A stretch of 38,720 nucleotides of DNA from a virus: IMG/VR virus record IMGVR_UViG_3300021963_000007; one strand, written 5' to 3'. The notes under the pieces were generated by a model. It was given only the letters and a program-made list of their open reading frames with translations, did not search any database and was not told where the DNA came from. Shown here one piece after another: positions 281-38,720 of the stretch (the stretch's first letter is position 1; each line of letters begins with the position of its first letter). Made by a program: the position numbers and the translations under genes.

Positions 281-323
281 AGCGGTTTAATGTCGGAAAT
301 ATGCGTCATTTGCGTCACAGAGG

Positions 324-329
324 GATAAT
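324..329 (+). promoter_or_regulatory. Possible -10 hexamer GATAAT upstream of terS. The expected -35 position is occupied by TGCGTCA repeats
   Basis: GATAAT lies at 324-329 and no good -35 hexamer sits 16-18 nt upstream. The repeats at 302-317 overlap that position, so an activator-dependent promoter is only a guess. Confidence 0.25.
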
Positions 330-415
330 TAGCCGATGAATCAAGAAGATAGGTGTGACGGACTGGCCGAAATATGCGTCACAGATGCGTCACATGCGTC
401 ACAGAGGAGGGTTTT

Positions 416-937
416 ATGGCTGGACGGCTGAAAACGCGGGTCGGGTTGGTTACGCTGGCCCACAAACGCGATGAGGTGAGGGAGTTGCTTGAGGCTGGTA
501 CTCCGCTGCCCGATGTGGCCAAGCAAATGGACGTGCCATATCAGGCGCTGACCAAGTGGCTTGATCAGACTGAGCAAGCGGGGCTATACGCGCGAGCTAG
601 GGAAAAGGCGGCGGACCTGCTTGCCACTGAGACGCTGGCCATAGCGGATGACGTGCTGGGTGAGGTGGCGCGCGACCGGCTGCGCGTGGACGCGCGGCGC
701 TGGCTCGCCGGCCGCTGGGACCCGACCCGCTTCGCGGACCGGGCCGGCGTTGCCGTGCAGGTCAACCTCGGCGACCTGCACCTGACCGCTGTCAAGGCCA
801 GCGCGGAGGCCCTGACGCACGAGCCTGACAGGCCCGTGTACGAGCCTGACACCGAAGGCCTGACAAGCCCGGCGCCTGAGCCTGACGCGGTCCCTGAGCC
901 GCGGCGCCGACGCGCCCCGAAGGCGCCCCGCGCCTGA
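416..937 (+). CDS. terS: Terminase small subunit (HTH type), 173 aa
   Basis: Frame of track ORF 374..937. The ATG at 416 lies 5 nt after GAGGAGG (404-410). The product has an N-terminal HTH-like segment. It also carries the YARAREKAADLLA...RDRLRVDARRWLAGRWDPTRFADR signature that I recognise from HTH-type small terminases. Confidence 0.7.
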   Translation: MAGRLKTRVGLVTLAHKRDEVRELLEAGTPLPDVAKQMDVPYQALTKWLDQTEQAGLYARAREKAADLLATETLAIADDVLGEVARDRLRVDARRWLAGRWDPTRFADRAGVAVQVNLGDLHLTAVKASAEALTHEPDRPVYEPDTEGLTSPAPEPDAVPEPRRRRAPKAPRA

Positions 938-1041
938 GCTCCCGGCGCCCGGGCGCCGAGGCCCCCCGGGCCCGGCCCCGGCCGGGGGCGCGGCTGGTGC
1001 AGAGGCCCACACCCACCGCCAAAAAAAATTGCACCACCCTA

Positions 1042-1070
1042 TTGCTAGTGTGTCGCGCTACCTCTACACT
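1042..1070 (+). promoter_or_regulatory. Sigma70-like promoter P1: TTGCTA-17 nt-TACACT
   Basis: -35 at 1042-1047, -10 at 1065-1070, 17-nt spacer. The -10 and leader are nearly identical to P2 and P3. Confidence 0.65.
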
Positions 1071-1105
1071 ACTCCTCACTGACCAACGCAACCGAGGACC
1101 CGCAC

Positions 1106-1342
1106 ATGACCACCGAGCAAATGGAACGCATGTTAGAGAACCGCTTCAGCCGCCGCTGCCTCGCCGAGGACCGCGCGATGTCCCGCCGCGAACGGCTGGA
1201 AGCCCGCGCCGAAAAGCTGATTGGCGAGCTCTGCCGCGACGGCCGCACCGTCTACTACGTCGTTCAGACGAACGGCAAGGTGCGTGAGGCCAACTGGAAG
1301 TCCGATTTGGTCGACTTCCTGATCCGTCGCAAGTACGTCTAA
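1106..1342 (+). CDS. Hypothetical early protein (78 aa), first gene behind P1
   Basis: Track ORF. The ATG lies exactly 3 nt after the conserved CCGAGGACCCG (1092-1102). No family recognised. Confidence 0.75.
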   Translation: MTTEQMERMLENRFSRRCLAEDRAMSRRERLEARAEKLIGELCRDGRTVYYVVQTNGKVREANWKSDLVDFLIRRKYV

Positions 1343-1349
1343 CCCGGCC

Positions 1350-1369
1350 GGGGAGGGGCGACCCTCCCC
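1350..1369 (+). other. Intergenic GC hairpin GGGGAGGG-GCGA-CCCTCCCC without a U-tract
   Basis: Perfect 8-bp stem read directly, located between two early genes. Confidence 0.5.
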
Positions 1370-1404
1370 CACCACCCTGTAACCGAGAAACCGAGGACCC
1401 GACT

Positions 1405-1812
1405 ATGAAGACCAAAACAGCCTACGAATGGGCGCTTGAGACCGTCACCACCGACGACTTCAACGACATCTTGGATGTCTGGCACCACGACTCGCTGGCC
1501 GACTTCTCCGACGACCAGATTCGCCGCGTGTTGAGCGGCGAGCGCTTCACCGTGGACGGTGGCGCCGCGGGCCCGCTTGAGGTGCGCTACGAACTGGCGC
1601 TGACCAAGCGTCGATATGAGCGCCTGCCGACCACTATCCTGTCCACCGGCAAGCCGGGCGAGGACATGCTCGACCTGCTCGACATCGGCTACGCCTACGT
1701 CGGGAACGAAGAACCCGGCCAGCTTCCGGCCGAGTTCGACGAGGCGCCCGGTAAGGTCCCGGCGCGATTTAAGGCCGAGCTCGCGAAGCGAATCGCGCGC
1801 TTGAAGCCCTGA
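1405..1812 (+). CDS. Hypothetical acidic early protein (135 aa)
   Basis: Track ORF. CCGAGGACCCG at 1391-1401 lies 3 nt before the ATG. D/E-rich, no family recognised. Confidence 0.75.
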   Translation: MKTKTAYEWALETVTTDDFNDILDVWHHDSLADFSDDQIRRVLSGERFTVDGGAAGPLEVRYELALTKRRYERLPTTILSTGKPGEDMLDLLDIGYAYVGNEEPGQLPAEFDEAPGKVPARFKAELAKRIARLKP

Positions 1813-1834
1813 CCCCCGGCCGCGGGGCAGGGTG

Positions 1835-1863
1835 TTGACGCCCTGTCCCGCGACCTCTACACT
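1835..1863 (+). promoter_or_regulatory. Sigma70-like promoter P2: TTGACG-17 nt-TACACT
   Basis: -35 at 1835-1840 and -10 at 1858-1863. The -10 and leader CCTCTACACTACTCCTCAC...CAACCGAGGACCCG are shared with P1. Confidence 0.7.
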
Positions 1864-1895
1864 ACTCCTCACCAACCGCAACCGAGGACCCGCGC

Positions 1896-2333
1896 ATGAA
1901 CATCACCAGCCCCAGCCACGACCTCTTTCTCTCCTACGCCCGCCGCGCCGGCAAATGGTCGGCCATCGTGTACGTCGGCGGAAAACTGACAAAGTTCAAG
2001 GAGCTCAAGGAGCTCAAGCAGGCCGACCTGATCAGCACCGTCTCCGACCGCGGCAACGTGTACCTGCGGTTTACCCCGGCCGGCGTGGCCTACGCCCTTG
2101 AGAACGGGGTCGACCTCTGCGACGGCACGGTCATGCAGAACTACTTTGAGACCCTCAACGCCGCGCTGGAGGCCGAAGGCCTGCTCGATTCATGGGACTG
2201 CTCCAGCAGCCCGATTGCCCGCGGCGAGACCCGCCGCTGGACGTGGCAGGACGGCAGCCGCCACGGCCGCCAGTGCTCCGTGTACCGTGACGAGACCGGC
2301 CGCTACGAGCGCCCTGTCCACTACGCCCGCTAA
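1896..2333 (+). CDS. Hypothetical early protein (145 aa), first gene behind P2
   Basis: Track ORF with the conserved motif at 1882-1892. Confidence 0.75.
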   Translation: MNITSPSHDLFLSYARRAGKWSAIVYVGGKLTKFKELKELKQADLISTVSDRGNVYLRFTPAGVAYALENGVDLCDGTVMQNYFETLNAALEAEGLLDSWDCSSSPIARGETRRWTWQDGSRHGRQCSVYRDETGRYERPVHYAR

Positions 2334-2353
2334 CCGCAACCGAGGACCCGACA

Positions 2354-2689
2354 ATGGCCAAGACCATCCCCGACCTTAACCGCGCGCTGGCCAAGGCCGG
2401 CGCCCCCGTCACCCTGTACCGCGGCTACGGCTACCTGTACTACGTTTACGACGACGTGCCGGCCAACGTCTGGCAGGACCGGTCCATGCCGCTCTGCCAC
2501 TTCAAGCAGATGCCGTTCGTGTTCTGGCTGGAAGAGGGCCTGCGCTTCGCCGCCGAGGTCCGCGCACAGCGCGAGGCCCTCGCACAGCGCGAGGCGCGGT
2601 TCGCCGCCCTGATGGAGTACGACCCGGACGCCGACGAGGACGACGAGGACGACGAGGACGACGAGGACGACGAGGACGACGAGCCGTAA
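2354..2689 (+). CDS. Hypothetical early protein (111 aa) with a poly-acidic C-terminal tail (DADEDDEDDEDDEDDEDDEP)
   Basis: Track ORF with the conserved motif at 2340-2350. The tail is encoded by a perfect 9-bp repeat. Confidence 0.75.
   Translation: MAKTIPDLNRALAKAGAPVTLYRGYGYLYYVYDDVPANVWQDRSMPLCHFKQMPFVFWLEEGLRFAAEVRAQREALAQREARFAALMEYDPDADEDDEDDEDDEDDEDDEP
2633..2683 (+). repeat. In-frame 9-bp tandem repeat (GACGAGGAC), about 5.7 copies
   Basis: Read directly. It encodes the (DED)n tail and contains five internal GAGGAC Shine-Dalgarno-like strings. Confidence 0.9.
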
Positions 2690-2702
2690 GACTGCTGACG
2701 AT

Positions 2703-2741
2703 GGCCCGGGGGACCGGGCCGAAACACCGCCCCCGCGGTGT
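2703..2741 (+). other. Double stem-loop intergenic element, copy A: GGCCCGG-GGGA-CCGGGCC, then ACACCGC-CCCC-GCGGTGT
   Basis: Two perfect 7-bp stems at 2703-2720 and 2724-2741. A homologous element with compensatory changes lies on the minus strand at 27911-27947. Confidence 0.7.
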
Positions 2742-2767
2742 CCAGTCAACCAACCGAGGACCCGAGC

Positions 2768-2998
2768 ATGCCGAAGAAACCCCACCGCACCGTTTTTCAC
2801 TGGGCGTGGAACGCGGAGCCGCTGCAAGTCGACCCCAGCATGACCCGGAAGCGGGCTGCTATCCTGCTCCGGGACTGGCGCAGCAACCCGAACACGCGGC
2901 TGGAGCGCGTTGGCCGCGGGCGCTACCGGATCGAGATGGAAGGCGCCGGCTGCGCTGTTGCCACCATGACCATCGCCCGAGGACCCGACCATGCGTAA
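2768..2998 (+). CDS. Hypothetical early protein (76 aa)
   Basis: In-frame ATG 2768 inside track ORF 2738..2998. It was chosen because CCGAGGACCCG (2754-2764) sits 3 nt upstream. Confidence 0.7.
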   Translation: MPKKPHRTVFHWAWNAEPLQVDPSMTRKRAAILLRDWRSNPNTRLERVGRGRYRIEMEGAGCAVATMTIARGPDHA

Positions 2999-3173
2999 AT
3001 CCCGTTACCGCGGCCCAATGGCCGTCTGGCACCGCCCCACCCCGCTTTGGCAGCGCGCCCTGCGGTGTGTCTTCGAGGTGGTCGGCGTGGTGGGCCTGAT
3101 GCTCGCCCTGCTGTTCCTGCTGGCCGCGGCGCCACACATCGATGCATGGGTCATCGGGAACCGGCCGTGGTAG
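2991..3173 (+). CDS. Small membrane protein (60 aa, one hydrophobic helix VVGVVGLMLALLFLLAAA)
   Basis: Track ORF with the motif at 2977-2987. It overlaps the upstream gene by 8 nt. Confidence 0.65.
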   Translation: MRKSRYRGPMAVWHRPTPLWQRALRCVFEVVGVVGLMLALLFLLAAAPHIDAWVIGNRPW

Positions 3174-3388
3174 CCCGGCGCCCCAGCGGCTGGCACCGGG
3201 AGTCTCGCCGGCTCGGCGCCGCGATGGGCTGGCGGACCTGCGCGACGTGCGGCGAGCGCAAGCGCTCGGATGCGTTCTACCCCCACCCTGACACCCCGGA
3301 CGGCATTAGCCCGGACTGCAAGGCCTGCGAGGGCTACTGGATGGCGACCGGGCACATCCGCCCGCGGCGCCGGGAGCCCGCAAAATAA
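3167..3388 (+). CDS. Small zinc-ribbon protein (CATCG...CKAC); the start is uncertain (GTG 3167 or ATG 3224)
   Basis: Frame of track ORF 3047..3388. GTG 3167 follows GGGAA and overlaps the upstream stop. ATG 3224 has no Shine-Dalgarno sequence. Two CxxC pairs are present. Confidence 0.5.
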   Translation: MVARRPSGWHRESRRLGAAMGWRTCATCGERKRSDAFYPHPDTPDGISPDCKACEGYWMATGHIRPRRREPAK

Positions 3389-3402
3389 ATTGCGGGGAAG
3401 TG

Positions 3403-3431
3403 TTGACGGCATGGCGGGCAATCTCTACACT
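3403..3431 (+). promoter_or_regulatory. Sigma70-like promoter P3: TTGACG-17 nt-TACACT
   Basis: -35 at 3403-3408 and -10 at 3426-3431. The leader CTCACCAACCGCAACCGAGGACCCG is identical to that of P2. Confidence 0.7.
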
Positions 3432-3463
3432 TCCCCTCACCAACCGCAACCGAGGACCCGACC

Positions 3464-3733
3464 ATGAGCAAGCCCGACCTGATTCGCCAGACTTTGCTGG
3501 ACCACTTCATTGAGACCGGAAAGCCGCTGCTGATCAGCGAGCTGGTAACGATGTGCAAGGCCAGCCGCCAGACCGTCAAAGACGCCATCTGGGACCGCTC
3601 CTACGACTTCGACTTTTGCGACATTGAGGTGTGGAGCGGCAGCAGTTGGAATGGCCGCTACCGCGTTTGCCAAGGCGCGCAGCCGTCCCGCCGGTATCTT
3701 GCCAGCATTATCAAAGCCGCCCGCGGCGCCTAA
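3464..3733 (+). CDS. Putative winged-helix DNA-binding protein (89 aa)
   Basis: Track ORF with the motif at 3450-3460. The N-terminal segment IRQTLLDHFIETGKPLLISELVTMCKASRQTVKDAIWD looks like an HTH. Confidence 0.6.
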   Translation: MSKPDLIRQTLLDHFIETGKPLLISELVTMCKASRQTVKDAIWDRSYDFDFCDIEVWSGSSWNGRYRVCQGAQPSRRYLASIIKAARGA

Positions 3734-3747
3734 CCGAGGACCCGACC

Positions 3748-4419
3748 ATGAGCACCTACGGCTACATCCGCGTCAGCACCGCCGAGCAGGCGGACGGCAC
3801 CAGCCTCGACGAGCAGCGCCGCCAGATTGCCGGCAACGCGATGGCGCACGGCCTCGACGTTACCCAGTGGGTCGAAGACGCTGGCGTCTCCGGCTCGCTG
3901 CCGTTCGTTGACCGTCTGGCCGCGCACGGTGTCGAGCCGGTCCGCGGCGACACCATCATCGTCGCGAAGCTGGACCGCTTCAGCCGTGACCTGCGCGACG
4001 CGCTGAACACGGTCCACGGCTTCAAACAGGCCGGCGTGCGCCTGATCGTGAACGGCCACGGCGACGTGACCGACGACAGCAACATCTACGCCCGCCTGAT
4101 GCTCGAAATCCTGTGCGCCTTTGCCGGCCATGAGCGCCGGGTCATCAAGGACCGTCAGAAGACCGGCCAGCGCAACAAGCGCGCGCAGGGCGGCCACATC
4201 GGCGGCAGCGCCCCGTTTGGCTACCGCACCATCGGCCACGGCCGCAGCGCGACGCTGGAGGCCATCCCGGAGCAGCAGGCGGCCATCGCCACCATGCTGG
4301 CCCTGCGCGCCACTGGCGCGAGCCTGCGGGCCATCAGCGCGGCTGTGGAGGCCCAGCACGGCCTCAAGGCCAGCCATGAGGCCGTGCGCCGCGTCCTGCG
4401 CGAGGCAGGCGCCTTGTAG
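3748..4419 (+). CDS. Small serine recombinase (resolvase/invertase family, 223 aa)
   Basis: In-frame ATG 3748 of track ORF 3631..4419, with the motif at 3734-3744. It has the N-terminal YGYIRVSTAEQ catalytic-serine signature, KLDRFSRD, and a C-terminal HTH-like segment (GASLRAISAAV). Confidence 0.85.
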   Translation: MSTYGYIRVSTAEQADGTSLDEQRRQIAGNAMAHGLDVTQWVEDAGVSGSLPFVDRLAAHGVEPVRGDTIIVAKLDRFSRDLRDALNTVHGFKQAGVRLIVNGHGDVTDDSNIYARLMLEILCAFAGHERRVIKDRQKTGQRNKRAQGGHIGGSAPFGYRTIGHGRSATLEAIPEQQAAIATMLALRATGASLRAISAAVEAQHGLKASHEAVRRVLREAGAL

Positions 4420-4442
4420 AGGCCCTGCGCCCCGGTCACACT

Positions 4443-4468
4443 AAGGCACCCCCCGCGGTGCCTTTTTT
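4443..4468 (+). terminator. Intrinsic terminator: AAGGCACC-CCCCGC-GGTGCCTT, whose last two stem bases begin a T6 run
   Basis: The 8-bp stem spans 4443-4450 and 4457-4464. The T run spans 4463-4468 and ends immediately before the terL ATG. Confidence 0.8.
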
Positions 4469-5878
4469 ATGTCCATGCCCAACCCGTTTGTCACGTTCCT
4501 GCTCACCTACCGTAACGACCCGGTGGCGTTCGTTGTCGACGTGCTCGGCGTCGAGCCCGACGACTGGCAGAAGGACTTCCTGCGCGCGGTGGCGGCCGGG
4601 CATCGCCGGGTCAGCATCCGGTCCGGTCACGGTGTGGGCAAATCAACCGGCGCAAGCTGGGCCATGCTCTGGTATCTGCTGACTCGCTACCCGGTCAAGA
4701 TCGTGGTGACGGCGCCCACCAGCAGCCAGCTTTACGACGCCCTGTTCGCCGAGGTGAAGCGCTGGGTCAAAGCGCTGCCCCCCGCGCTGGCTGACCTGCT
4801 CGACCCGAAGCAGGAGCGCATCGAACTCAAGAGCAGCCCCACCGAGGCCTTCATCAGCGCGCGCACAAGCCGCGCAGAGCAGCCAGAGGCCTTGCAGGGC
4901 ATTCACAGCGACAACGTGATGCTGATCGCCGACGAGGCCTCTGGCGTGCCCGAGCAGGTGTTCGAGGCCGCGGCCGGGTCGATGTCCGGGCATGCGGCCA
5001 CCACCATCCTGCTGGGCAACCCGGTGCGCAGCTCTGGGTTCTTCTACGACACCCACCACCGGTTGTCGTCGGAGTGGTGGACGCGCCGGGTGTCCTGCGC
5101 CGACAGCCCCCGCGTGAGCCCGGCCTATCTGGCCGAAATGCAGAGCCGCTACGGCGAGGAGTCGAACGCATACCGGGTCCGCGTGCTGGGCGAGTTCCCG
5201 CGCAGCGACGACGACACCATCATCCCGATGGAGCTGCTGGAAGCCGCCATCCATCGCGATGTAGCGCGCAGCGACGTGGCGCAGACCGTCTGGGGGCTGG
5301 ACGTGGCGCGGTTCGGCAGCGACTCCAGCGCGCTCTGTAAGCGCGCAGGGAACGCTGTGCTGGAGCCTGTGCGCCGCTGGCGGGGTCTGGACCTGATGCA
5401 GCTCACGGGCGCCGTGGTGGCCGAGTATGAGGCCCTGTCGCATGAGGAGCGGCCGGTCGAGATACTGGTCGATTCCATCGGGCTTGGCGCCGGGGTCGTG
5501 GACCGGCTGCGCGAACTCAACTTGCCGGCGCGCGGGATCAACGTCAGCGAGTCCCCGGCGATGGGCGGGACCTACCGCAACCTGCGCGCCGAGCTCTGGT
5601 ACAAGGCCAAGGCGTGGTTCGAGAAACGCGACTGCAAGCTGCCGAAGGACGAGCAGCTCGTGTCGGAGCTGGCCACCGTGCGTTACAAGTTCAGCAGCAA
5701 CGGTAAGACGCAGGTGGAAGGCAAGGACGAGATCCGGCGCCGCGGTCTGGCGTCGCCCGACCTTGCCGATGCGTTTGTGCTCACGTTCGCCTCTGATGCC
5801 GCTACGGTGACCTACGGGGCGTCGTACAACTCCCCGTGGTCGAAGCCTATCCGCCGGGCCATCCCGCGTCTTGCGTAA
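4469..5878 (+). CDS. terL: Terminase large subunit (469 aa)
   Basis: Track ORF. It has the Walker-A-like SGHGVGKST, the ATPase stretch VMLIADEASGV, and a C-terminal nuclease-like region. Its position upstream of the portal gene also fits. Confidence 0.85.
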   Translation: MSMPNPFVTFLLTYRNDPVAFVVDVLGVEPDDWQKDFLRAVAAGHRRVSIRSGHGVGKSTGASWAMLWYLLTRYPVKIVVTAPTSSQLYDALFAEVKRWVKALPPALADLLDPKQERIELKSSPTEAFISARTSRAEQPEALQGIHSDNVMLIADEASGVPEQVFEAAAGSMSGHAATTILLGNPVRSSGFFYDTHHRLSSEWWTRRVSCADSPRVSPAYLAEMQSRYGEESNAYRVRVLGEFPRSDDDTIIPMELLEAAIHRDVARSDVAQTVWGLDVARFGSDSSALCKRAGNAVLEPVRRWRGLDLMQLTGAVVAEYEALSHEERPVEILVDSIGLGAGVVDRLRELNLPARGINVSESPAMGGTYRNLRAELWYKAKAWFEKRDCKLPKDEQLVSELATVRYKFSSNGKTQVEGKDEIRRRGLASPDLADAFVLTFASDAATVTYGASYNSPWSKPIRRAIPRLA

Positions 5879-5926
5879 TCCTGCGCGCGCTGTGGTACGC
5901 TTCCGCCATCGATTTGAGGGCCTACC

Positions 5927-6085
5927 ATGAAGAAGTCGAAGATGCAAGCCAAGGTCGGCAAGGTAATGCACGAGTTCAAGGGCGGCACGCTGCATTCCGG
6001 CAAAGGTGGGCCCGTGGTCAAGAGTCCGAAACAGGCCATCGCCATTGCGATGAGCGAGGGCCGCAAGGCCGCGAGGAAAAAGTAA
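5927..6085 (+). CDS. Small conserved basic protein (52 aa, MKKSKMQAKVGKVMHEFKGGTLHSGKGGPVVKSPKQAIAIAMSEGRKAARKK)
   Basis: Not in the ORF track because it is under 60 aa. Translated by hand. GAGGG lies 6 nt upstream. The MHEFK..G.L.SG....V.S.KQAIAIA pattern matches a widespread small-protein family, from memory only. Confidence 0.65.
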   Translation: MKKSKMQAKVGKVMHEFKGGTLHSGKGGPVVKSPKQAIAIAMSEGRKAARKK

Positions 6086-14662: not shown

Positions 14663-14700
14663 CTTTCGAGAAATCTTTCAAGGTGCTTGAAGCCAGATAA
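14659..14700 (+). pseudogene. Remnant of an endolysin 5' end (MTFEKSFKVLEAR-stop)
   Basis: 14659-14688 matches the start of the intact endolysin (16841-16870) at 28 of 30 nt, including the ATGA junction. Homology ends after GTGCTT, and a stop follows at 14698-14700. Confidence 0.8.
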
Positions 14701-15509
14701 TGTTTTCCATCGCGCCATTTTCCGTAGCACCGTTTTCGTCGATTAGAATCGACAATCAGCTTGCGGCAAACGTTTCCGCCGTTGCGTCTGCTGCCGGCGA
14801 CTTGTCCACGTCCATTCAGCTTGCGGCGAACGTTTCCGCCGTTGCGTCTGCTGCCGGCGACTTGTCCACGTCCATTCAGCTTGCGGCGAACGTTTCCGCC
14901 GTTGCGTCTGCTGCCGGCGACTTGTCTACGTCCATCCAACTTGCGGCAGACGTTTTCGCCGTTGCGTCTGTTGCCGGCGACTTATCCACGTCCATCCAAC
15001 TTGCGGCAGACGCCTCCGCCGTTGCGTCTGTTGCCGGCGACTTATCCACGTCCATCCAACTTGCGGCAGACGCCTCCGCCGTTGCGTCCGCTGCCGGCGA
15101 CTTGTTTACGTTCAAGCCGATTGCGGCAGACGTTTATGCTGTTGCGTCAGCAAGTGCCACCTTAGTTTCCGCCGTATTGATAGACGGCAGCGCGCTGATT
15201 GTAGCTAGTGCTATCGCGCAGCTTGCCGAGGTTAGCGGGCCGGTAGACATTGCGGGCCCGGCAACTGTGTCGGGAAGCGCTATAGTTTTAATCGGCAGTG
15301 GTGAGTGTTCAGTTTACGCCGGAAGCGTTGCCACTATCCAATGGCTTCCCGTAATTGATACCGGCGAATCATGGGGCCCGATTGCAACGTCTGCGGCGAC
15401 TTGGACCCCCCAGACCGCGCCAATTGATCCGTGGACCGCGCAGGCGACCCCGGCCGAGACGTGGACCGCGCAAACAGTACCACCGGGCGGCTGGTCCGCC
15501 GCCGCATAA
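14700..15509 (+). CDS. Repeat-containing fibre-region protein (269 aa) with 20-aa tandem repeats and a Trp-periodic C-terminus
   Basis: Track ORF. The unit LAANVSAVASAAGDLSTSIQ recurs about 6.5 times. The C-terminus is WGPIATSAATWTPQTAPIDPWTAQATPAETWTAQTVPPGGW. Confidence 0.7.
   Translation: MFSIAPFSVAPFSSIRIDNQLAANVSAVASAAGDLSTSIQLAANVSAVASAAGDLSTSIQLAANVSAVASAAGDLSTSIQLAADVFAVASVAGDLSTSIQLAADASAVASVAGDLSTSIQLAADASAVASAAGDLFTFKPIAADVYAVASASATLVSAVLIDGSALIVASAIAQLAEVSGPVDIAGPATVSGSAIVLIGSGECSVYAGSVATIQWLPVIDTGESWGPIATSAATWTPQTAPIDPWTAQATPAETWTAQTVPPGGWSAAA
14757..15150 (+). repeat. 60-bp tandem repeat, about 6.5 copies, in frame
   Basis: Units are phased exactly with the 60-nt sequence lines 14761, 14821, 14881, 14941, 15001, 15061 and 15121. 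Copies 1-2 differ at 1 nt, and later copies diverge progressively. Confidence 0.95.
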
Positions 15510-27883: not shown

Positions 27884-27910
27884 GTTCGGGTCCTCGGTGT
27901 TGGTTGCTAG

Positions 27911-28195: not shown

Positions 28196-28226
28196 GTTCG
28201 GGTCCTCGGTGTTGGTTGGTTCGGTA

Positions 28227-28255
28227 ATTGTCTGCTAGTAGAGATTGCCTGTCAA
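28227..28255 (-). promoter_or_regulatory. Leftward sigma70-like promoter PL: TTGACA-17 nt-GACAAT
   Basis: On the minus strand the -35 is at 28255-28250 and the -10 at 28232-28227. The flanking GTGTTGAC and GGCAATCTCTAC strings are shared with P3. The -10-to-ATG distance (31 nt) matches P2 and P3 (32 nt). Confidence 0.55.
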
Positions 28256-28331: not shown

Positions 28332-28357
28332 AGGGCAACCGCGAAACCGAGGTAATT

Positions 28358-28834
28358 ATGAGAGTTCTGGGGATTGACCCGGGCGCGTCTGGCGCCATCG
28401 CACTGCTCGACACCGAGCAAAACACCATTGCCGTAATCGATATGCCATGCGTCGACATTCGCCGCGGCACGCGCAACGTGCGCCACGTTTCGGCGCAGGC
28501 GCTGTCGCTGGTCGTGGCCGCGCTCCAGCCGATTGACCACGCGGTCGTCGAGCGGGTCCACAGCATGCCCGGGCAGGGCGTCGCCAGCACGTTTGCCTTT
28601 GGCCGCGCGTTTGGCGTCTGCGAAGGCGTACTGGCCGGGGCCGGCGTGCGCTACACCGACGTGGCGCCAGCGACGTGGATGCGCGCCCTGCGCCTCACAG
28701 GCGGCAAGGACGCAGCGCGCCACATGGCGATGCAATTGTTCCCAACCGAAGCCGAGCGCTTCAGCCGCAAAAAGGACGACGGCCGCGCCGATGCGACCCT
28801 GCTGGCCGTCTATGGCGCGCGGGTGGTCGCATGA
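28358..28834 (+). CDS. RuvC-like Holliday-junction resolvase (158 aa)
   Basis: Track ORF with a GAGG Shine-Dalgarno sequence. It has the N-terminal MRVLGIDPGASGAIALL motif and the C-terminal DDGRADATLLAVYG acidic motif typical of phage RuvC-type resolvases. Confidence 0.8.
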   Translation: MRVLGIDPGASGAIALLDTEQNTIAVIDMPCVDIRRGTRNVRHVSAQALSLVVAALQPIDHAVVERVHSMPGQGVASTFAFGRAFGVCEGVLAGAGVRYTDVAPATWMRALRLTGGKDAARHMAMQLFPTEAERFSRKKDDGRADATLLAVYGARVVA

Positions 28835-32218: not shown

Positions 32219-32272
32219 ACCATTCGGCGCGGCGGCCATCGCGGTCGCCGCGTCCCAACCGAGGACACGAGA

Positions 32273-32752
32273 ATGCCAGCACATCACAAACGCAGCGAGA
32301 CCGGAGTGGCCGCTGCGAATCCGCACAGCGGGCCCAGAGGCGGCGACGCCAGCTATCGGGCCTACTTCCAGACCGCCGAGCAATTCCAAGCCGCGATGAC
32401 CTTGGCCGCCCGACTTGAGGCCAAGGGCATGCCCCGCCGCGCGTGGCGGGTCCGGCTGAATCTTGATGGCCAGCAGCCGGTGTATTGCGCGCCGAAGGAC
32501 GACGAGGAAGACGATGCCGAGGACGAGAATGGCACCGCGCAACGCCCCGTCCGCACAATGTCTCTCGAGCTACTGCTGGAAGCGCAGGCCGAAATCAAGA
32601 AGCTGATAAAAAAGAGCCAACTATCTCACCGAAAACTTTCGGCTGAGCTCGGCGTTTCGCAGCAAACAGTCTCAAGTTGGAACAAAGGCGGATACATCGG
32701 CAAAGACTCGTTTGAAAAACTCAAAAAGTTCGTGGAGAGCATGAAGAAATGA
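32273..32752 (+). CDS. Two-part protein (159 aa): GC-rich N-terminal half, acidic linker, lower-GC C-terminal XRE-type HTH
   Basis: Track ORF. The variant motif CCGAGGACACG (32259-32269) sits 3 nt before the ATG. The C-terminal SQLSHRKLSAELGVSQQTVSSWNKGG is a canonical HTH. Confidence 0.65.
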   Translation: MPAHHKRSETGVAAANPHSGPRGGDASYRAYFQTAEQFQAAMTLAARLEAKGMPRRAWRVRLNLDGQQPVYCAPKDDEEDDAEDENGTAQRPVRTMSLELLLEAQAEIKKLIKKSQLSHRKLSAELGVSQQTVSSWNKGGYIGKDSFEKLKKFVESMKK

Positions 32753-33036
32753 GCAGACGTGCGACAGATTATTTAGCGCAAGCGAAGGCTGAAATGGAGG
32801 ACCGCGCGGCCAGCCGAGACACGCCAACCGGAGAGCGCTCGATGGCCAGAGCCGTGGCAGCTTTTAACACTCTCTACAATCATGATCTGACCGAGACAGA
32901 GGGCTGGCAGTTTATGTCCATTCTCAAAAAGGCGCGGGGCGCGCAGGGCGCATATCGGGAAGACGACTACATCGACGATGTCGCGTACGCAGCGCTTGCA
33001 GCCGAAAGCGCCAGCGGCGCAAGGGGGGAGAAATGA
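32749..33036 (+). CDS. Small conserved phage protein (95 aa; resembles the family I recall as DUF6378)
   Basis: Track ORF with an ATGA overlap. Characteristic pattern: ERSMARAVAAFNTLYNHDLTETEGWQFMSILKKAR...DDYIDDVAYAAL. Confidence 0.65.
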   Translation: MSRRATDYLAQAKAEMEDRAASRDTPTGERSMARAVAAFNTLYNHDLTETEGWQFMSILKKARGAQGAYREDDYIDDVAYAALAAESASGARGEK

Positions 33037-33612: not shown

Positions 33613-33757
33613 AAAACTGAGGGAAGCGGCGCAACACTTAATTAAGTGTTGGGATGACGAGGAAACGGCGACCAAGATCTTTGACGCCATAAACGCGCTG
33701 CGCGGCGCAGTGGCAGACGACAAAGAAAAGGCGATTCGCGCAAGGGGGCAGGAATGA
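33605..33757 (+). CDS. Mini-protein (50 aa) ending KAIRARGQE
   Basis: In-frame ATG 33605 of track ORF 33515..33757, with GCAAGGGGGAAAA upstream and an 8-nt overlap with the previous gene. Confidence 0.5.
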   Translation: MCKKLREAAQHLIKCWDDEETATKIFDAINALRGAVADDKEKAIRARGQE

Positions 33758-34092
33758 CTAGGGAAGAGATTTGTCAGCGTCTGGGCTGGATGACGTTGCC
33801 GAAAACGTCGGAAATGCTTGGGAAAACTCAGCACTCCGACATGTTAGACCGAATCGAAAAAATTGTGGAAGCGGCGGTGCTGGCCGAGCAGCAAGAAAAT
33901 TGCCCTATTTGCGAATGCGATTACCGGCAGAAAAATCTGGCGGCGGCGGTGCTGGCCGAGCGCGAGGCGTGCGCGAAGGCTGCGGAAGGCTACGCAGACT
34001 TTCAACTGCAACTGGGCGACGACCTCGCCCAGTGGAGGGCAATCGGCGCGTTGGCCGTGATGGCAGCAATTAGCGAAAGGGGGCAGGAATGA
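33754..34092 (+). CDS. Mini-protein, ERE-CA family member c (112 aa)
   Basis: Track ORF with an ATGA overlap. It starts MTREEI, contains AAVLAEREACAKAAE, and ends AAISERGQE. Confidence 0.65.
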   Translation: MTREEICQRLGWMTLPKTSEMLGKTQHSDMLDRIEKIVEAAVLAEQQENCPICECDYRQKNLAAAVLAEREACAKAAEGYADFQLQLGDDLAQWRAIGALAVMAAISERGQE

Positions 34093-34277
34093 ACCGCGAC
34101 GTCTGCGGCCAATGCGACGCGCCGGTTGAGTTGTGCCGGTGCGCCGCGCTGGTCGCTGCCGCCGAGCGCAAGGAGAGGGAGCGTTGCGCAAAAATCTGCG
34201 AGCAGCTACAGGACTGGCCCGAGGGCGCAACGCCATATGACTGCGCCAAAGCGATCCGCGCGGGGCGGCCGGTATGA
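34089..34277 (+). CDS. Mini-protein, ERE-CA family member d (62 aa)
   Basis: Track ORF with an ATGA overlap. It contains LVAAAERKERERCAKICE and ends CAKAIRAGRPV. Confidence 0.65.
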   Translation: MNRDVCGQCDAPVELCRCAALVAAAERKERERCAKICEQLQDWPEGATPYDCAKAIRAGRPV

Positions 34278-36224: not shown

Positions 36225-38615
36225 GTGAGAGCAGAACAACTATTTTCGGCGGGGTTTACGGACCTCGTCAGCGTGGCGCCTCCGGGCGCCGCGTTGTCTC
36301 CGGCTAGCAATATCAAGCCGGATGCGCTGGGCAAGGCGCCAGCGCGATTGGGTGGCGCGGGGTGGGCCGGGTACGACTGGCGCCGCGCCGAGGTGCGTCT
36401 GTCCGATGCGCAGACGATGGACCGCACCGGGGCCAGCATCGGCCTGCGGGCGCGGACCTATCCGGCGCTCGACATCGATGTGCTGGACGAGGACCTCGCC
36501 GCGGTCGTCGAGCGGCTCGCGTTGGAGATACTGGGGCCGGCGCCCTGTCGGATCGGACGCGCCCCCAAGCGGCTGCTGGCCTACCGCTGCTCGACACCGT
36601 TCGGCCGGATGCGGCTGTGGCTGACTGAGGATAGCGGCAAGCGGCATCTGGTCGAGATGCTGGCCGATGGGCAGCAGTACGTCATCGCGGGCACACACGC
36701 CACCACAGGCCGCCCCTACGAGTGGGACGCGGACTTGTGCGAGCTGAGCCCAATGGGCCTGCGCGAGGTCGACCGGGACAAGGTGCAGGCATTCTTTGCC
36801 GCGCTTGAGTCCGAGGTGGATTTTCTGGGGCTCAAGGTCGAGCGAGAGGGCACGGGTGCGGTGGCGATGGCTGGGGATGCGCCTGCGCAGGACTCACTGC
36901 GCGCGCCGTCTCTGGACCTGCTGGCGAGCGCTGTGGCGGCCATGCCCAACGATGCCGCCAACTACGAGGAGTACATCGCGGTGGGCATCGCCATCAAGGC
37001 CGCGGGCGCGGCCGATGAGGGCGCCGCGTTGCAGGTCTATCAGGCATGGGCCGCGCGCTGGCCTGATGGAGACAATGACCCACAAAACGTGGCCCGGGAC
37101 TGGGCGCGCATGCGTTCGCCATACCGGATCGGATGGCAATGGGTGGCGGACCGCGCCGCGCGCTATGGCTGGAACGCGGCCGGGTGGGAGTTCCCGGTGG
37201 AGCCGATTGCGGACGAGGTCGAGAGCCGGGGCACGGTGGAGTACACCGACGCGGCGATGGCGGCGCGGATGGTGCTGGCGCACTCACACGAGGCCAAGCA
37301 CTGCGCCGCGCTGGGCGGCTGGCTGGTCTGGGACGGCTCGCGCTGGGCGCCGGACGAGACGCTGCTGGTGGCGGACTGGGCCGGGGCGCTGCTGCAAGAG
37401 GCCGCGCGCGAGGTGCTGGCCCGGGGCGACTACAAGGCCGAGCGCGCGACAAAGGTGGCCGAGCGGCTGTCGAGCGTGAGCTCGCGCAACAACTGCGAGG
37501 CCTATGCCCGAGCGGACCGCCGGGTGAATGTGCGGGCTGAGCAATTCGACGCGGACCCGATGCTGCTGAACACACCCGGCGGCATCGTGGACCTGCGCAC
37601 CGGGGTGCTGCGCGACCGACACCGGGGCGAGCTGGTGATGCGGGTGGCGGGCGCGGTGCCTGACCGCAAGACGCGGCCGGTGGCGTGGCTGGAGTTCCTG
37701 CGCTGGGCCACGGGCGAGGACGATGCGCTGCTGGGCTACCTGCGGCGGCTGATTGGGTACTGCCTGACCGGGCAGACGCACGAGCAGCACCTGTCGTTCC
37801 TGTTCGGCCCGGGCGGCACTGGCAAGTCGGTTTTTGCGGGGCTGGTGGCGTCGCTGCTGGGGGACTACGCGGTCAAGTCGCAGATGGAGACGTTTGTGGC
37901 TAGCACCGTGGACCGGCACCCGACTGAGCTGGCGCGGTTGCGCGGCGCGCGGTTGGTGTGGGCTAGCGAGACGCAGGACGGCCGGCGATGGGCCGAGGGT
38001 CGCGTCAAGGAATTGACGGGCGGCGAGCCGGTCACCGCGCGGTTCCTGCACCGCGACGAGTTCACCTATGTGCCGCAGTTCAAGCTGGTGTTTTTGGGCA
38101 ACCATCGCCCGGCCATTCGCAACGTCGAGAGCGGCATCAGGCGTCGGCTGCATGTGGTGCCGTTCATCCGGCCGCCTGCTGTGGTCGACCAGACGCTGCC
38201 AGAGCGGCTTAGGGCCGAGCTGCCGGCCATCATGGGCTGGGCGGTCGAGGCGTGCCTAGAGTGGCAGCGCGATGGTCTCCGGCCGCCGCAGGCGGTGCTC
38301 GACGCGACCGACGATTACTGCGAGGAGGAGGACGTGTTCGGGCGTTGGATCGACGACTGCTGCACGGCGGGGCCGGCAGAGTTCGCGACCATTCCCGAGC
38401 TGTTCGAGAGCTGGCGCGGCTGGGCGGTCGAGCAGGGCGAGTACGTTGGGAGCGCCAAGCGGTTGTCGGCCGCGCTCAAGCAGAGGGGATTGCAGGCCGT
38501 GCGGACGCGGGATGCGCGGGCGTTTGCGGGTCTGGCGGTGCGGCTGGGGCCGGGACAACTGGGCCGGGCGGCCGGTGTCGTGGTGCGTGGTGAGTTCGGT
38601 GTCGGTGGCGCGTGA
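36225..38615 (+). CDS. Primase-polymerase (AEP) fused to a P4/D5-type SF3 helicase (796 aa)
   Basis: In-frame GTG 36225 of track ORF 36087..38615, with GAGGGG 5 nt upstream, just after the polymerase stop. AEP motifs are ALDIDVLD and IAGTHATTGRPYEW. There is a central primase C-terminal-like region. Walker A is GPGGTGKS, and KLVFLGNHRP and RRRLHVVPF are typical of the P4-family primase C-terminal domain. Confidence 0.85.
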   Translation: MRAEQLFSAGFTDLVSVAPPGAALSPASNIKPDALGKAPARLGGAGWAGYDWRRAEVRLSDAQTMDRTGASIGLRARTYPALDIDVLDEDLAAVVERLALEILGPAPCRIGRAPKRLLAYRCSTPFGRMRLWLTEDSGKRHLVEMLADGQQYVIAGTHATTGRPYEWDADLCELSPMGLREVDRDKVQAFFAALESEVDFLGLKVEREGTGAVAMAGDAPAQDSLRAPSLDLLASAVAAMPNDAANYEEYIAVGIAIKAAGAADEGAALQVYQAWAARWPDGDNDPQNVARDWARMRSPYRIGWQWVADRAARYGWNAAGWEFPVEPIADEVESRGTVEYTDAAMAARMVLAHSHEAKHCAALGGWLVWDGSRWAPDETLLVADWAGALLQEAAREVLARGDYKAERATKVAERLSSVSSRNNCEAYARADRRVNVRAEQFDADPMLLNTPGGIVDLRTGVLRDRHRGELVMRVAGAVPDRKTRPVAWLEFLRWATGEDDALLGYLRRLIGYCLTGQTHEQHLSFLFGPGGTGKSVFAGLVASLLGDYAVKSQMETFVASTVDRHPTELARLRGARLVWASETQDGRRWAEGRVKELTGGEPVTARFLHRDEFTYVPQFKLVFLGNHRPAIRNVESGIRRRLHVVPFIRPPAVVDQTLPERLRAELPAIMGWAVEACLEWQRDGLRPPQAVLDATDDYCEEEDVFGRWIDDCCTAGPAEFATIPELFESWRGWAVEQGEYVGSAKRLSAALKQRGLQAVRTRDARAFAGLAVRLGPGQLGRAAGVVVRGEFGVGGA

Positions 38616-38720
38616 CTGACGTGACGCATTGTTCCGGAAACTTTTCTCGGCGTGTGACGCAAATGACGCATTGTTCCGGAAACTTTTCCCGGGATGATGC
38701 GCCGTTTTCGGCCGTGTGTG
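38594..38720. repeat. Terminal direct repeat, right copy, identical to 1..127
   Basis: 127/127 identity with the window start, read directly. Confidence 0.95.

Follow-up and report, generated by a model that had tools for sequence, protein, structure and literature searches.

An exact 11-nucleotide block before accessory-gene start codons of a small aquatic phage: a candidate portable start module at points of cassette exchange

Accessory genes and their common start block

The window analysed here, a stretch of 38,720 nucleotides, is a complete phage genome (circular assembly, ~38.6 kb) that is found in river, lake and estuary metagenomes and in no RNA run. The phage is small, podovirus-like and aquatic, carries a T7-type replication module, lacks T4-like genes, and encodes a gp2.5-like annealing protein as well as an exonuclease; beyond a small serine recombinase, we detected no signs of lysogeny, and Rfam and tRNA searches returned no matches. 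Its host is probably not an actinobacterium. Known relatives include sequences of 35–47 kb.

Ten genes of this phage, eight in an island between terS and terL and two in a leftward operon, carry an exact 11-nucleotide motif three nucleotides upstream of their start codons, and they are the genes that lie behind four related sigma-70-type promoters (Table 1). Profile searches, including Pfam, showed the island genes to be ORFans or of unknown function, apart from gene 8, a recombinase, and nine of the ten encoded proteins are on record in public collections. GC3 is 0.80–0.95 in all ten reading frames. The ten proteins show no mutual similarity, ruling out paralogy of the genes, which means that the motif was not spread by gene duplication.

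The promoter-like elements resemble one another beyond their consensus boxes. P3 and P2 are 83% identical over 71 nt, with differences mostly in the spacer, the P1 leader is homologous to the leaders of P2 and P3, and the upstream half of PL is related to P3. The -35 box of P2 lies in the loop of a strong hairpin (1818–1854, z = -3.7), and a hairpin is also found upstream of P3. The promoter consensus is matched by P2 and P3, compared to 0.3 matches expected, and promoter-like matches elsewhere in the window occur at chance level only. The sigma-70-type character of these promoters suggests that the motif genes are expressed early.

Table 1. Positions of promoter-like elements, motif copies and the predicted terminator in the window, with the products of the genes that follow the motif
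Feature	Position	Strand	Context	Gene product
Promoter-like P1, TTGCTA-17-TACACT	1042–1070	+	Read from sequence; repeat family D12	
Motif copy 1 + cac + ATG of gene 1	1092–1108	+	Downstream of P1	78 aa; phrog_16256, function unknown
Motif copy 2 + act + ATG of gene 2	1391–1407	+		135 aa, acidic
Promoter-like P2, TTGACG-17-TACACT	1835–1863	+	Repeat family D11	
Motif copy 3 + cgc + ATG of gene 3	1882–1898	+	Downstream of P2	145 aa
Motif copy 4 + aca + ATG of gene 4	2340–2356	+	6 nt past gene 3 stop	111 aa, poly-acidic tail
Motif copy 5 + agc + ATG of gene 5	2754–2770	+	Double stem-loop 2703–2741 upstream	76 aa
Motif copy 6 + acc + ATG of gene 6	2977–2993	+	Within gene 5 3' end	60 aa, hydrophobic
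Promoter-like P3, TTGACG-17-TACACT	3403–3431	+	Repeat family D11	
Motif copy 7 + acc + ATG of gene 7	3450–3466	+	Downstream of P3	89 aa
Motif copy 8 + acc + ATG of gene 8	3734–3750	+	Adjoins gene 7 stop codon	Small serine recombinase (Pfam Resolvase, 2e-30)
Intrinsic terminator (predicted)	4443–4464	+	Closes the island, just upstream of terL	
Motif copy 10 + aac + ATG of leftward gene L2	27881–27897	-		241 aa
Motif copy 9 + aac + ATG of leftward gene L1	28193–28209	-	Downstream of PL	78 aa, acidic
Promoter-like PL, TTGACA-17-GACAAT	28227–28255	-	Leftward operon	
Half copy AACCGAGG-taatt-ATG of gene 28358	28345–28360	+		RuvC-like resolvase
One-mismatch copy CCGAGGACACG + aga + ATG of gene 32273	32259–32275	+		159 aa

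Our recount confirmed the copy number, positions and spacing given in a preliminary description of the sequence: the motif, CCGAGGACCCG, occurs in ten exact copies, whereas 0.03 are expected in the window (100 shuffles, maximum 1). Eight of these are on the plus strand and two on the minus strand (the 11-mer itself at 27887–27897 and 28199–28209), and in all ten N3-ATG follows directly, always in the sense orientation of the reading frame. The one-mismatch copy before gene 32273 and the AA prefix noted earlier were likewise recovered, with A at position -16 in seven and at position -15 in nine of the copies. Pairwise identity is 100% over the 11 bases, drops to 0.53 in the 3-nt spacer and reaches background (~0.3) beyond. 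The consensus of the proposed start module of ~20 nt reads AA-CCGAGGACCCG-A(c)C-ATG-A.

Around this core, similarity between the copies is mosaic and breaks off abruptly. Genes 3, 4 and 7 have AACCGCAA plus the motif in common, genes 6, 7 and 8 the motif plus ACCATG, and the start regions of L1 and L2 a stretch of 27 nt. Upstream of copy 2 lie a hairpin and a slipped half copy, AACCGAGAA, and copy 10 is preceded by a double stem-loop (27947–27911) of the same kind as that at copy 5. The last seven residues of gene 5 (ARGPDHA) are a read-through of the gene 6 start region; proteins of the gene 5 family usually end at ...TMxI, and the motif within the gene 5 tail is therefore attributable to the gene 6 start rather than to a constraint on the protein.

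The exact motif occurs at no structural gene in the whole window, and it is absent from one island gene (3167–3388), which has a GTG start and overlaps the gene 6 stop. As far as exact copies go, the earlier claim that the motif is missing from structural and core replication genes is correct, but a half copy precedes the RuvC-like gene and the gene with the one-mismatch copy sits within the replication module. The product of the latter gene gave a weak HTH match, under the Pfam cut-off. The RuvC-like gene is the first gene of the rightward replication operon.

Leaders of the motif genes (-30 to -1) consist of 45% C, 28% A and 6% T, compared to a genome-wide T content of 17%. Inspection against the canonical ...GAUCACCUCCUU-3' tail, which may not be that of the host, indicates that the motif can pair with the anti-Shine–Dalgarno (anti-SD) sequence only through GAGG, or through GAGGA with one G-U pair, leaving six of the 11 bases unpaired; no longer pairing with this tail was seen.

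Cassette junctions in related phages

We compared the island with related sequences, in which genes are gained, lost and replaced at the motif or its promoter-leader. A relative that is 89% identical (L007) lacks gene 7, with a joint lying within 23 nt common to copies 7 and 8, and its promoter spacer is P2-like within a P3 context. The same gene 7 joint (3471->3732) recurs in contigs of lake and aquatic runs; in such contigs, gene 1 is replaced from ATG+1 on (1109->1367), and a short form of gene 3 stands directly behind the motif (3460->2151; proteins P0013, P0014, P0017 and P0015). After 3460 these contigs read CC-ATG, equivalent to a 2-nt spacing before the short gene 3, whereas the translated leader of P0015 implies 3 nt. 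A contig from a plankton run is a P3/P2 recombinant in the promoter-leader (3434->1867), at which 26 nt fit both sides. Altogether, four of six island joints have one end within 12 nt of the motif-ATG block, and one more falls in the promoter-leader. One candidate joint (1402->2752), with a side on the scale of 27 nt and two extra letters, was dropped as too weak. The common stretches at the joints, 23–26 nt, are shorter than k = 31 and L007 was assembled independently, which makes it unlikely that the joints are assembly chimeras.

These junctions, lying in the motif or in the promoter-leader, directly support the earlier suggestion that an initiation region has been spread by duplication or recombination. 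The motif itself is kept in L001 and L007 and is implied by the translated leader of P0015, and in the lake and aquatic contigs the alignment with relatives extends through the last motif base. In the lineage of P0045, whose gene 5 is 81% identical, the gene 6 copy differs at no fewer than two positions, one of which is a guanine of the SD.

Among viral contigs, more than one copy was found only in L001, which is the same phage, and a scan of metagenome contigs with AACCGAGGACCCGNNNATG gave single matches among those listed, except for L200, which is the L007 sequence. Loci of 25 relatives, 11 kb or longer, yielded no start-associated 8-mer, a weak test, as these loci hold mostly structural genes; nearly all are low-GC, with terL ~77% identical. 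Neither a distant homologue of gene 1 (L214) nor a distant relative (L262) uses the motif. Across 185,579 species genomes there were 19 scattered single matches, among them an IS-like repeat in alphaproteobacterial MAGs (L216, L217 and L226) and single gene starts in Polaromonas, Betaproteobacteria, Burkholderiales and Denitrobaculum MAGs; none of the 19 yields a host or prophage. A 604-nt sequence (L219; coverage 1) in a Verrucomicrobiota MAG bin is 100% identical to window positions 2291–2653 and was rejected as host evidence.

Possible readings of the motif

In the explanation that we favour, and to which we give nearly an even chance, the motif is a portable translation-start module that is read by the ribosome alone and also serves as a short-homology crossover point. 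The 11-mer would be the core of a start module of ~20 nt acting in the mRNA, with GAGG pairing to the 16S rRNA tail 8 nt upstream of the AUG and a C/A-rich, almost U-free leader holding the start site fairly open. One such module would have become fixed to the accessory genes behind the four related promoters, in the terS-terL ORFan island and the leftward operon alike. Being identical before every cassette, it would provide a short patch of homology through which related phages could acquire, discard, replace or rearrange cassettes. Such traffic may help the copies to stay identical, with no dedicated reader assumed.

Predicted folding is consistent with a modest gain in openness, the motif starts being 0.60 unpaired compared to 0.50 at the other 33 starts (Mann–Whitney p = 0.003), which lends weak support to the preliminary notion of an 'optimised' start, although the SD pairing spans just 4–5 bp. 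Other observations sit less easily with the start-module explanation. A ribosome-only signal should not require all 11 bases, and 11–17 nt of identity is short for homologous recombination. Moreover, the CC and CCCG on either side of the SD core are invariant in all ten copies though unpaired, next to a spacer of low identity, which argues for sequence-specific reading of the non-SD bases.

Such a reader is the essence of the strongest alternative, which we consider possible and distinctly less probable, namely that the 11-mer is an mRNA operator through which a phage or host RNA-binding protein, or a small RNA, switches the accessory set on or off jointly, in concept like T4 RegA and as has been proposed for the start-associated sequences (SAS) of mycobacteriophages. 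The invariance of 11 of 11 positions in ten copies, beside three varying nucleotides and background flanks, points in this direction, as do the six bases for which inspection shows no partner in the canonical anti-SD (the host's may differ), the spacing to the AUG fixed in ten of ten copies, and the restriction of the motif to one promoter and gene class; the same argument has been put forward for SAS (PMC3203893). Conversely, we recognised no RNA-binding or regulator family among the small proteins of the phage, genes 7 and 1 are excluded as the reader because relatives without them retain the motif, and the P0045 relative tolerates at least two changes in its gene 6 copy, an SD guanine among them. 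The earlier proposal of a regulator or processing operator gains from the invariant bases and loses from the altered copy and from the lack of a recognised RNA-binding protein. We give the same chance to a reader, whether an RNA-binding protein of phage or host, a small RNA or a non-canonical ribosome contact, that coordinates the translation of all accessory and host-takeover genes of the phage. If a dedicated reader exists, the motif would be a handle for finding it, and SAS-type control would be a general phage strategy that arose independently outside actinobacteriophages, here fused to cassette shuffling.

A role in RNA processing appears improbable to us. Phage T4 RegB inactivates early messages at GGAG, and an endoribonuclease cutting polycistronic transcripts at or beside the motif could similarly inactivate early messages or give each cistron its own 5' end, outcomes that we regard as just as improbable. 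Such cleavage would suit a motif that stands both behind promoters and at borders between cistrons, in many cases shortly after a stable hairpin able to shield a 3' end; however, a cleavage site needs no exact N3 spacing to the ATG, and searches with the small proteins revealed no candidate nuclease.

Still less likely is a DNA site of the stoperator kind, at which a bound repressor would block transcription through the accessory genes. Cluster A mycobacteriophages have asymmetric 13-bp stoperators, and the motif likewise lacks symmetry, follows the direction of transcription on either strand and recurs many times outside the structural regions, but a DNA roadblock would have no use for a constant 3-nt spacing to the start codon, the only repressor candidate is the sub-threshold HTH in the gene 32273 protein, and lysogeny signs are absent beyond the small serine recombinase. 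That the motif is the crossover site of the gene 8 recombinase in an integron-like cassette system is hardly credible: a resolvase/invertase-type recombinase is indeed encoded in the island and cassette junctions lie at the motif, yet the motif is not palindromic and small serine recombinase sites are far longer than 11 nt, the 3434->1867 junction lies in the promoter -10/leader outside the motif and the joints share 23–26 nt, which together fit homology-driven exchange, and the phage itself encodes a gp2.5-like annealing protein and an exonuclease.

Comparison with known phage systems

The preliminary description had likened the motif to the operators of T4 RegA. Both systems have an early gene set with a common signal overlapping the initiation region; however, RegA sites are degenerate, AU-rich and variable in position around the AUG, with a known repressor, whereas the copies here are identical, C-rich sites, and searches with the small proteins of the phage recognised nothing RegA-like. 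The closest precedents are instead the SAS of cluster K mycobacteriophages (Pope et al. 2011, PMC3203893; 188-genome survey, PMC12699233) and the PeSL cassettes of T4-type phages (Arbiol et al. 2010, PMC2839356; PMC4122927).

Like the motif, SAS are short asymmetric repeats in about 10–19 copies of one orientation, placed a few nucleotides upstream of a start codon that is mostly ATG (here ten of ten, at 3 nt). Both occur only at non-structural genes of unrelated families. SAS combine an SD core with conserved flanks unpaired with 16S rRNA, as the motif probably does, judged by inspection against a canonical tail that may not be that of the host. The sequences are unrelated, however (CCGAGGACCCG here compared to the GGGATAGGAGCCC consensus), spacing is strictly 3 nt here and 3–7 nt in SAS, and the 17-bp inverted-repeat ESAS is absent from this small podovirus-like aquatic phage with its T7-type replication module. 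Here, the motif is also tied to repeated promoter and stem-loop cassettes, and cassette junctions at the motif are unreported for SAS. Since both sequence and phage lineage differ, the motif is an analogue of SAS, not a member of the SAS sequence family. SAS have been known since 2011, what reads them has not yet been shown by anyone, and their function was still without a test in 2025 (PMC12699233). A clean SAS-like case of different sequence in an unrelated aquatic phage indicates that the phenomenon is not peculiar to mycobacteriophages, and its ten exact copies, strict 3-nt spacing and SD of only 4–5 nt are useful features.

PeSL are defined by a promoter and terminator rather than by a ribosome-binding block, whereas the sharpest conservation here is the 11-mer at the start codon, also at promoterless internal cistrons. 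PeSL lie in hyperplastic regions of T4-type myoviruses and their activity was shown experimentally, compared to predicted promoters and terminator in the present phage. [quoted passage not shown] In our phage, the block at which translation would start also marks the points where ORFan genes come, go or are exchanged among relatives, and a start signal at the point of exchange would explain immediate expression of a newly acquired gene. The joint that goes back, 3434->1867, is as expected from tandem duplication or an excised circle between cassettes.

The start motif and its conservation

A search of the 38,720-nt window recovered all ten copies of the 11-mer CCGAGGACCCG located in the preliminary description, against 0.03 expected from dinucleotide-preserving shuffles of the window. 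Every copy (10/10) lies in the sense of an open reading frame, with exactly three bases between the motif and the ATG; copies 1-8 precede genes 1-8 of the island, the accessory genes between terS and terL, and copies 9 and 10 precede L1 and L2 on the opposite strand. The one-mismatch copy reported before position 32273 was also confirmed, and a half copy, AACCGAGG-taatt-ATG, was found upstream of the RuvC-like gene at 28358.

All ten copies agree at every position from -14 to -4; around this core, A stands at -15 (9/10) and at -3 (8/10), and C at -1 (8/10). Mean pairwise identity is 1.0 in the 11-mer, 0.53 in the 3-nt spacer, 0.36 from -26 to -17 (about 0.3 further out) and 0.3-0.4 on the coding side; an invariant core beside a variable spacer argues for selection on the core itself. 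Longer identities with abrupt borders link sub-groups of copies: AACCGCAA plus the motif is common to genes 3, 4 and 7, the motif plus ACCATG to genes 6, 7 and 8, and 27 nt to L1 and L2. Such a patchwork is the mark that recombination leaves when it spreads and reshuffles copies.

The genes that carry the motif have a high GC3 (0.80-0.95), and public protein collections contain nine of their ten products; when the ten were compared with each other, no mutual similarity was found. Gene 8 encodes a small serine recombinase (Pfam Resolvase, 2e-30) and is the only one with a recognised function, the other nine being ORFans or members of PHROG families without known function. Inside gene 1 (1164-1180), CCGAGGACCGC-gcg-ATG has 9/11 motif bases and the same 3-nt spacing before the in-frame Met25, which could be chance or an internal start yielding a 54-aa form.

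Genomic setting of the motif genes

In L001, the same phage in IMG/VR, the end of the window is joined to its start, which, together with identical first and last 127 nt (terminal overlap), shows a complete, circularly assembled genome of ~38.6 kb. It encodes head and packaging proteins (terS, terL, portal, scaffold, major head proteins), virion proteins and a replication module comprising a RuvC-like resolvase, SNF2 helicase, exonuclease, gp2.5-like SSB, DNA polymerase and primase-helicase. The phage is present in estuary, marine, river and lake metagenomes, and the closest named phage is Sinorhizobium phage phiM5, with ~66% DNA identity in terL and portal. The 604-nt contig L219, at coverage 1 and assigned to a Verrucomicrobiota MAG, matches window 2291-2653 at 100% identity, which probably reflects mis-binning rather than a host signal. 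Repeats of the TGTGACGCA type form arrays in both orientations between the primase-helicase gene and terS, and a 269-aa protein with seven tandem 60-nt (20-aa) repeats is encoded inside a low-GC (52-59%) region at 12-15 kb.

Coordinates of features and joints in the window
Feature	Coordinates	Description	Source
Island, terS-terL	938-4468	nine genes, 8/9 with motif	
Promoter-like P1	1042-1070		
Promoter-like P2	1835-1863		
Promoter-like P3	3403-3431		
Promoter-like PL	28255-28227	minus strand	
Double stem-loop, copy 5	2703-2741	upstream of copy	
Double stem-loop, copy 10	27947-27911	upstream of copy, minus strand	
P1 and P2 leaders	1071-1100, 1861-1890	CCUC upstream of GAGG	
Terminal overlap and TGTGACGCA-type arrays	1-415, 38594-38720	127-nt overlap; array families D7, D8, I2, I4	
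Tandem 60-nt repeats	14697-15236	seven repeats	
GCGATTCGCGCAAGGGGGCAGGA-ATGA-type blocks	33010-33036, 33731-33757, 34066-34092, 34251-34277	family D10	
Joint	3471->3732	same gene-7 joint as L007	two 10-kb contigs
Joint	1109->1367	gene 1 replaced, ATG+1 to next hairpin	lake and aquatic runs
Joint	3460->2151	20 new letters; short gene 3 (MQLFFP...) directly behind motif	lake and aquatic runs
Joint	3434->1867	P3/P2 promoter-leader recombinant; 26 nt compatible with either side	plankton run

The one island gene without the motif has a GTG start overlapping the preceding stop; in the leftward operon, the motif stands on the first two genes. All motif genes lie downstream of four related promoter-like sites of the sigma-70 type (P1, P2, P3 and PL), and matches to the sigma-70 consensus are above chance at P2, P3 and PL and at chance level elsewhere in the genome. 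Over a stretch of 71 nt, P2 and P3 share 83% identity, with differences clustered in the spacer (repeat family D11). Strong predicted hairpins lie upstream of or overlap the promoters and occur at some internal motif copies, and a double stem-loop of one kind precedes copies 5 and 10. The motif thus stands after promoters and at internal cistron borders alike. We infer promoter activity, terminator activity and 'early' timing of the motif genes. A CCUC placed 13-16 nt ahead of the motif's GAGG in the leaders of P1 and P2 is predicted to pair with it in a small hairpin present in the centroid fold, and would sit at or near the 5' end of transcripts from these putative promoters.

One copy lies within the 3' end of gene 5. 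Since proteins of this family usually end in ...TMxI, the tail ARGPDHA in gene 5 is no more than read-through of gene 6's start region.

Cassette joints and motif change in relatives

The relative L007 (89% identity over 9.4 kb) is without gene 7: its P3 promoter-leader leads straight into the recombinase gene, with the joint within 23 nt common to copies 7 and 8, and its promoter spacer is P2-like within the P3 context. Logan contigs from four runs (river, plankton, lake, aquatic) were compared with window 300-6000, and the resulting joints are listed in the table. Four of the six island joints have one end at most 12 nt from a motif-ATG block; these blocks with their margins make up ~9% of the island, giving p ~0.01 per joint by a rough binomial estimate. 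Because the shared stretches are shorter than the assembler k-mer and L007 is an independent assembly, we infer that the joints are not chimeras.

The plankton-run joint puts gene 3 after gene 6b, and fits a cassette block that was reordered or tandemly duplicated, or else an excised circle with a promoter cassette at each border, as in the mini-circles of T4-type promoter-early stem-loop (PeSL) cassettes. The logic of PeSL (PMC2839356) is matched here by promoters and stem-loops that recur as cassettes and by where the junctions fall; however, PeSL are defined by promoter plus terminator and belong to T4-like phages.

Gene 3 has 145 aa in the window (1896-2333), and forms of 65-77 aa (P0013, P0014, P0017, P0019) correspond to its C-terminal half, which makes the N-terminal 78 residues an added domain, placed between the motif and the short gene. 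The 66-aa proteins P0013, P0014 and P0017 match the short form of the joint, and the gene call P0015 is over-extended, its N-terminus (..TATEDPT-M) being a translation of leader and motif with the 3-nt spacing. In relatives, gene 2 (window 1405-1812) occurs in 158-159-aa forms (P0005, P0006), the C-terminus of which (..FAALMEYDPDADEDC) resembles the tail region of gene 4 (window 2354-2689), pointing to a fusion of genes 2 and 4, or to the loss of gene 3, in a 36.6-kb relative.

Gene 5 has just one further homologue that exceeds 50% identity, P0045 (81%); its likely origin is a 4.7-kb contig that also encodes a recombinase with 99% identity to gene 8. P0045 ends in ...IARVTDHA, so its gene-6 copy is altered at at least two of the 11 positions, including an SD guanine; this is one case against universal conservation of the motif, the per-position comparison across lineages being based on few copies. 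In another phage, a homologue of gene 1 with 49% identity starts behind a different ribosome site, indicating that the motif belongs to the phage lineage rather than to gene families.

Translation initiation and competing readings

Three features, namely the constant 3-nt gap before ATG, the strand rule and the SD embedded in the motif, indicate that it acts at translation initiation, in mRNA. By inspection, pairing with the canonical anti-SD would be limited to GAGG, or to GAGGA with one G-U pair, at a GAGG-to-AUG distance of 8 nt. The leaders of motif genes are C/A-rich and almost without U, and folding predictions make the start region modestly more open at motif starts (0.60 vs 0.50 at the other 33 starts, p=0.003).

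Tentatively, we favour a portable start module that is read by the ribosome and doubles as a short-homology crossover point. One such module, carried by unrelated cassettes, would offer a short patch of homology in which junctions fall, and a gene arriving behind it would be expressed at once; the motif on unrelated cassettes, the junctions within it and the instant expression of an acquired gene would thereby be explained. The ribosome alone, however, leaves six invariant non-SD bases unaccounted for, which makes a dedicated reader of the 11-mer, in line with the translational regulator proposed earlier, the main rival, one that we consider rather unlikely. An RNA processing site is improbable, and a stoperator-like DNA site is more improbable still; a site for the island's own serine recombinase is the least credible reading.

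The closest precedent is the start-associated sequences (SAS) of cluster K mycobacteriophages, which are 13 bp long, asymmetric, present in 11-19 copies per genome, placed 3-7 bp before mostly ATG starts of non-structural genes only, and composed of an SD core plus conserved bases unable to pair with rRNA (PMC3203893). Their role, unknown in 2011 (PMC3203893), had still not been put to the test by 2025 (PMC12699233). The motif described here resembles SAS in position and gene class, but differs in sequence, in its strict spacing and in phage lineage, and is thus an SAS analogue rather than a member. A search of Rfam gave no family match.

An IS-like repeat of uncultured alphaproteobacterial MAGs (L216:4739-4785, L217:408-454, L226:2790) carries the exact start AACCGAGGACCCGACAATG on one side, with CCGAGGACCTG-cg-ATG on the opposite strand, and is unrelated to the phage. 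Within the window, a second start context recurs: a 27-nt block of the GCGATTCGCGCAAGGGGGCAGGA-ATGA type (about 78-100% identity) is common to the ends of four small replication-module genes, so that each stop overlaps the next ATG; this G-rich, coupled-start context is distinct from the CCGAGGACCCG motif.
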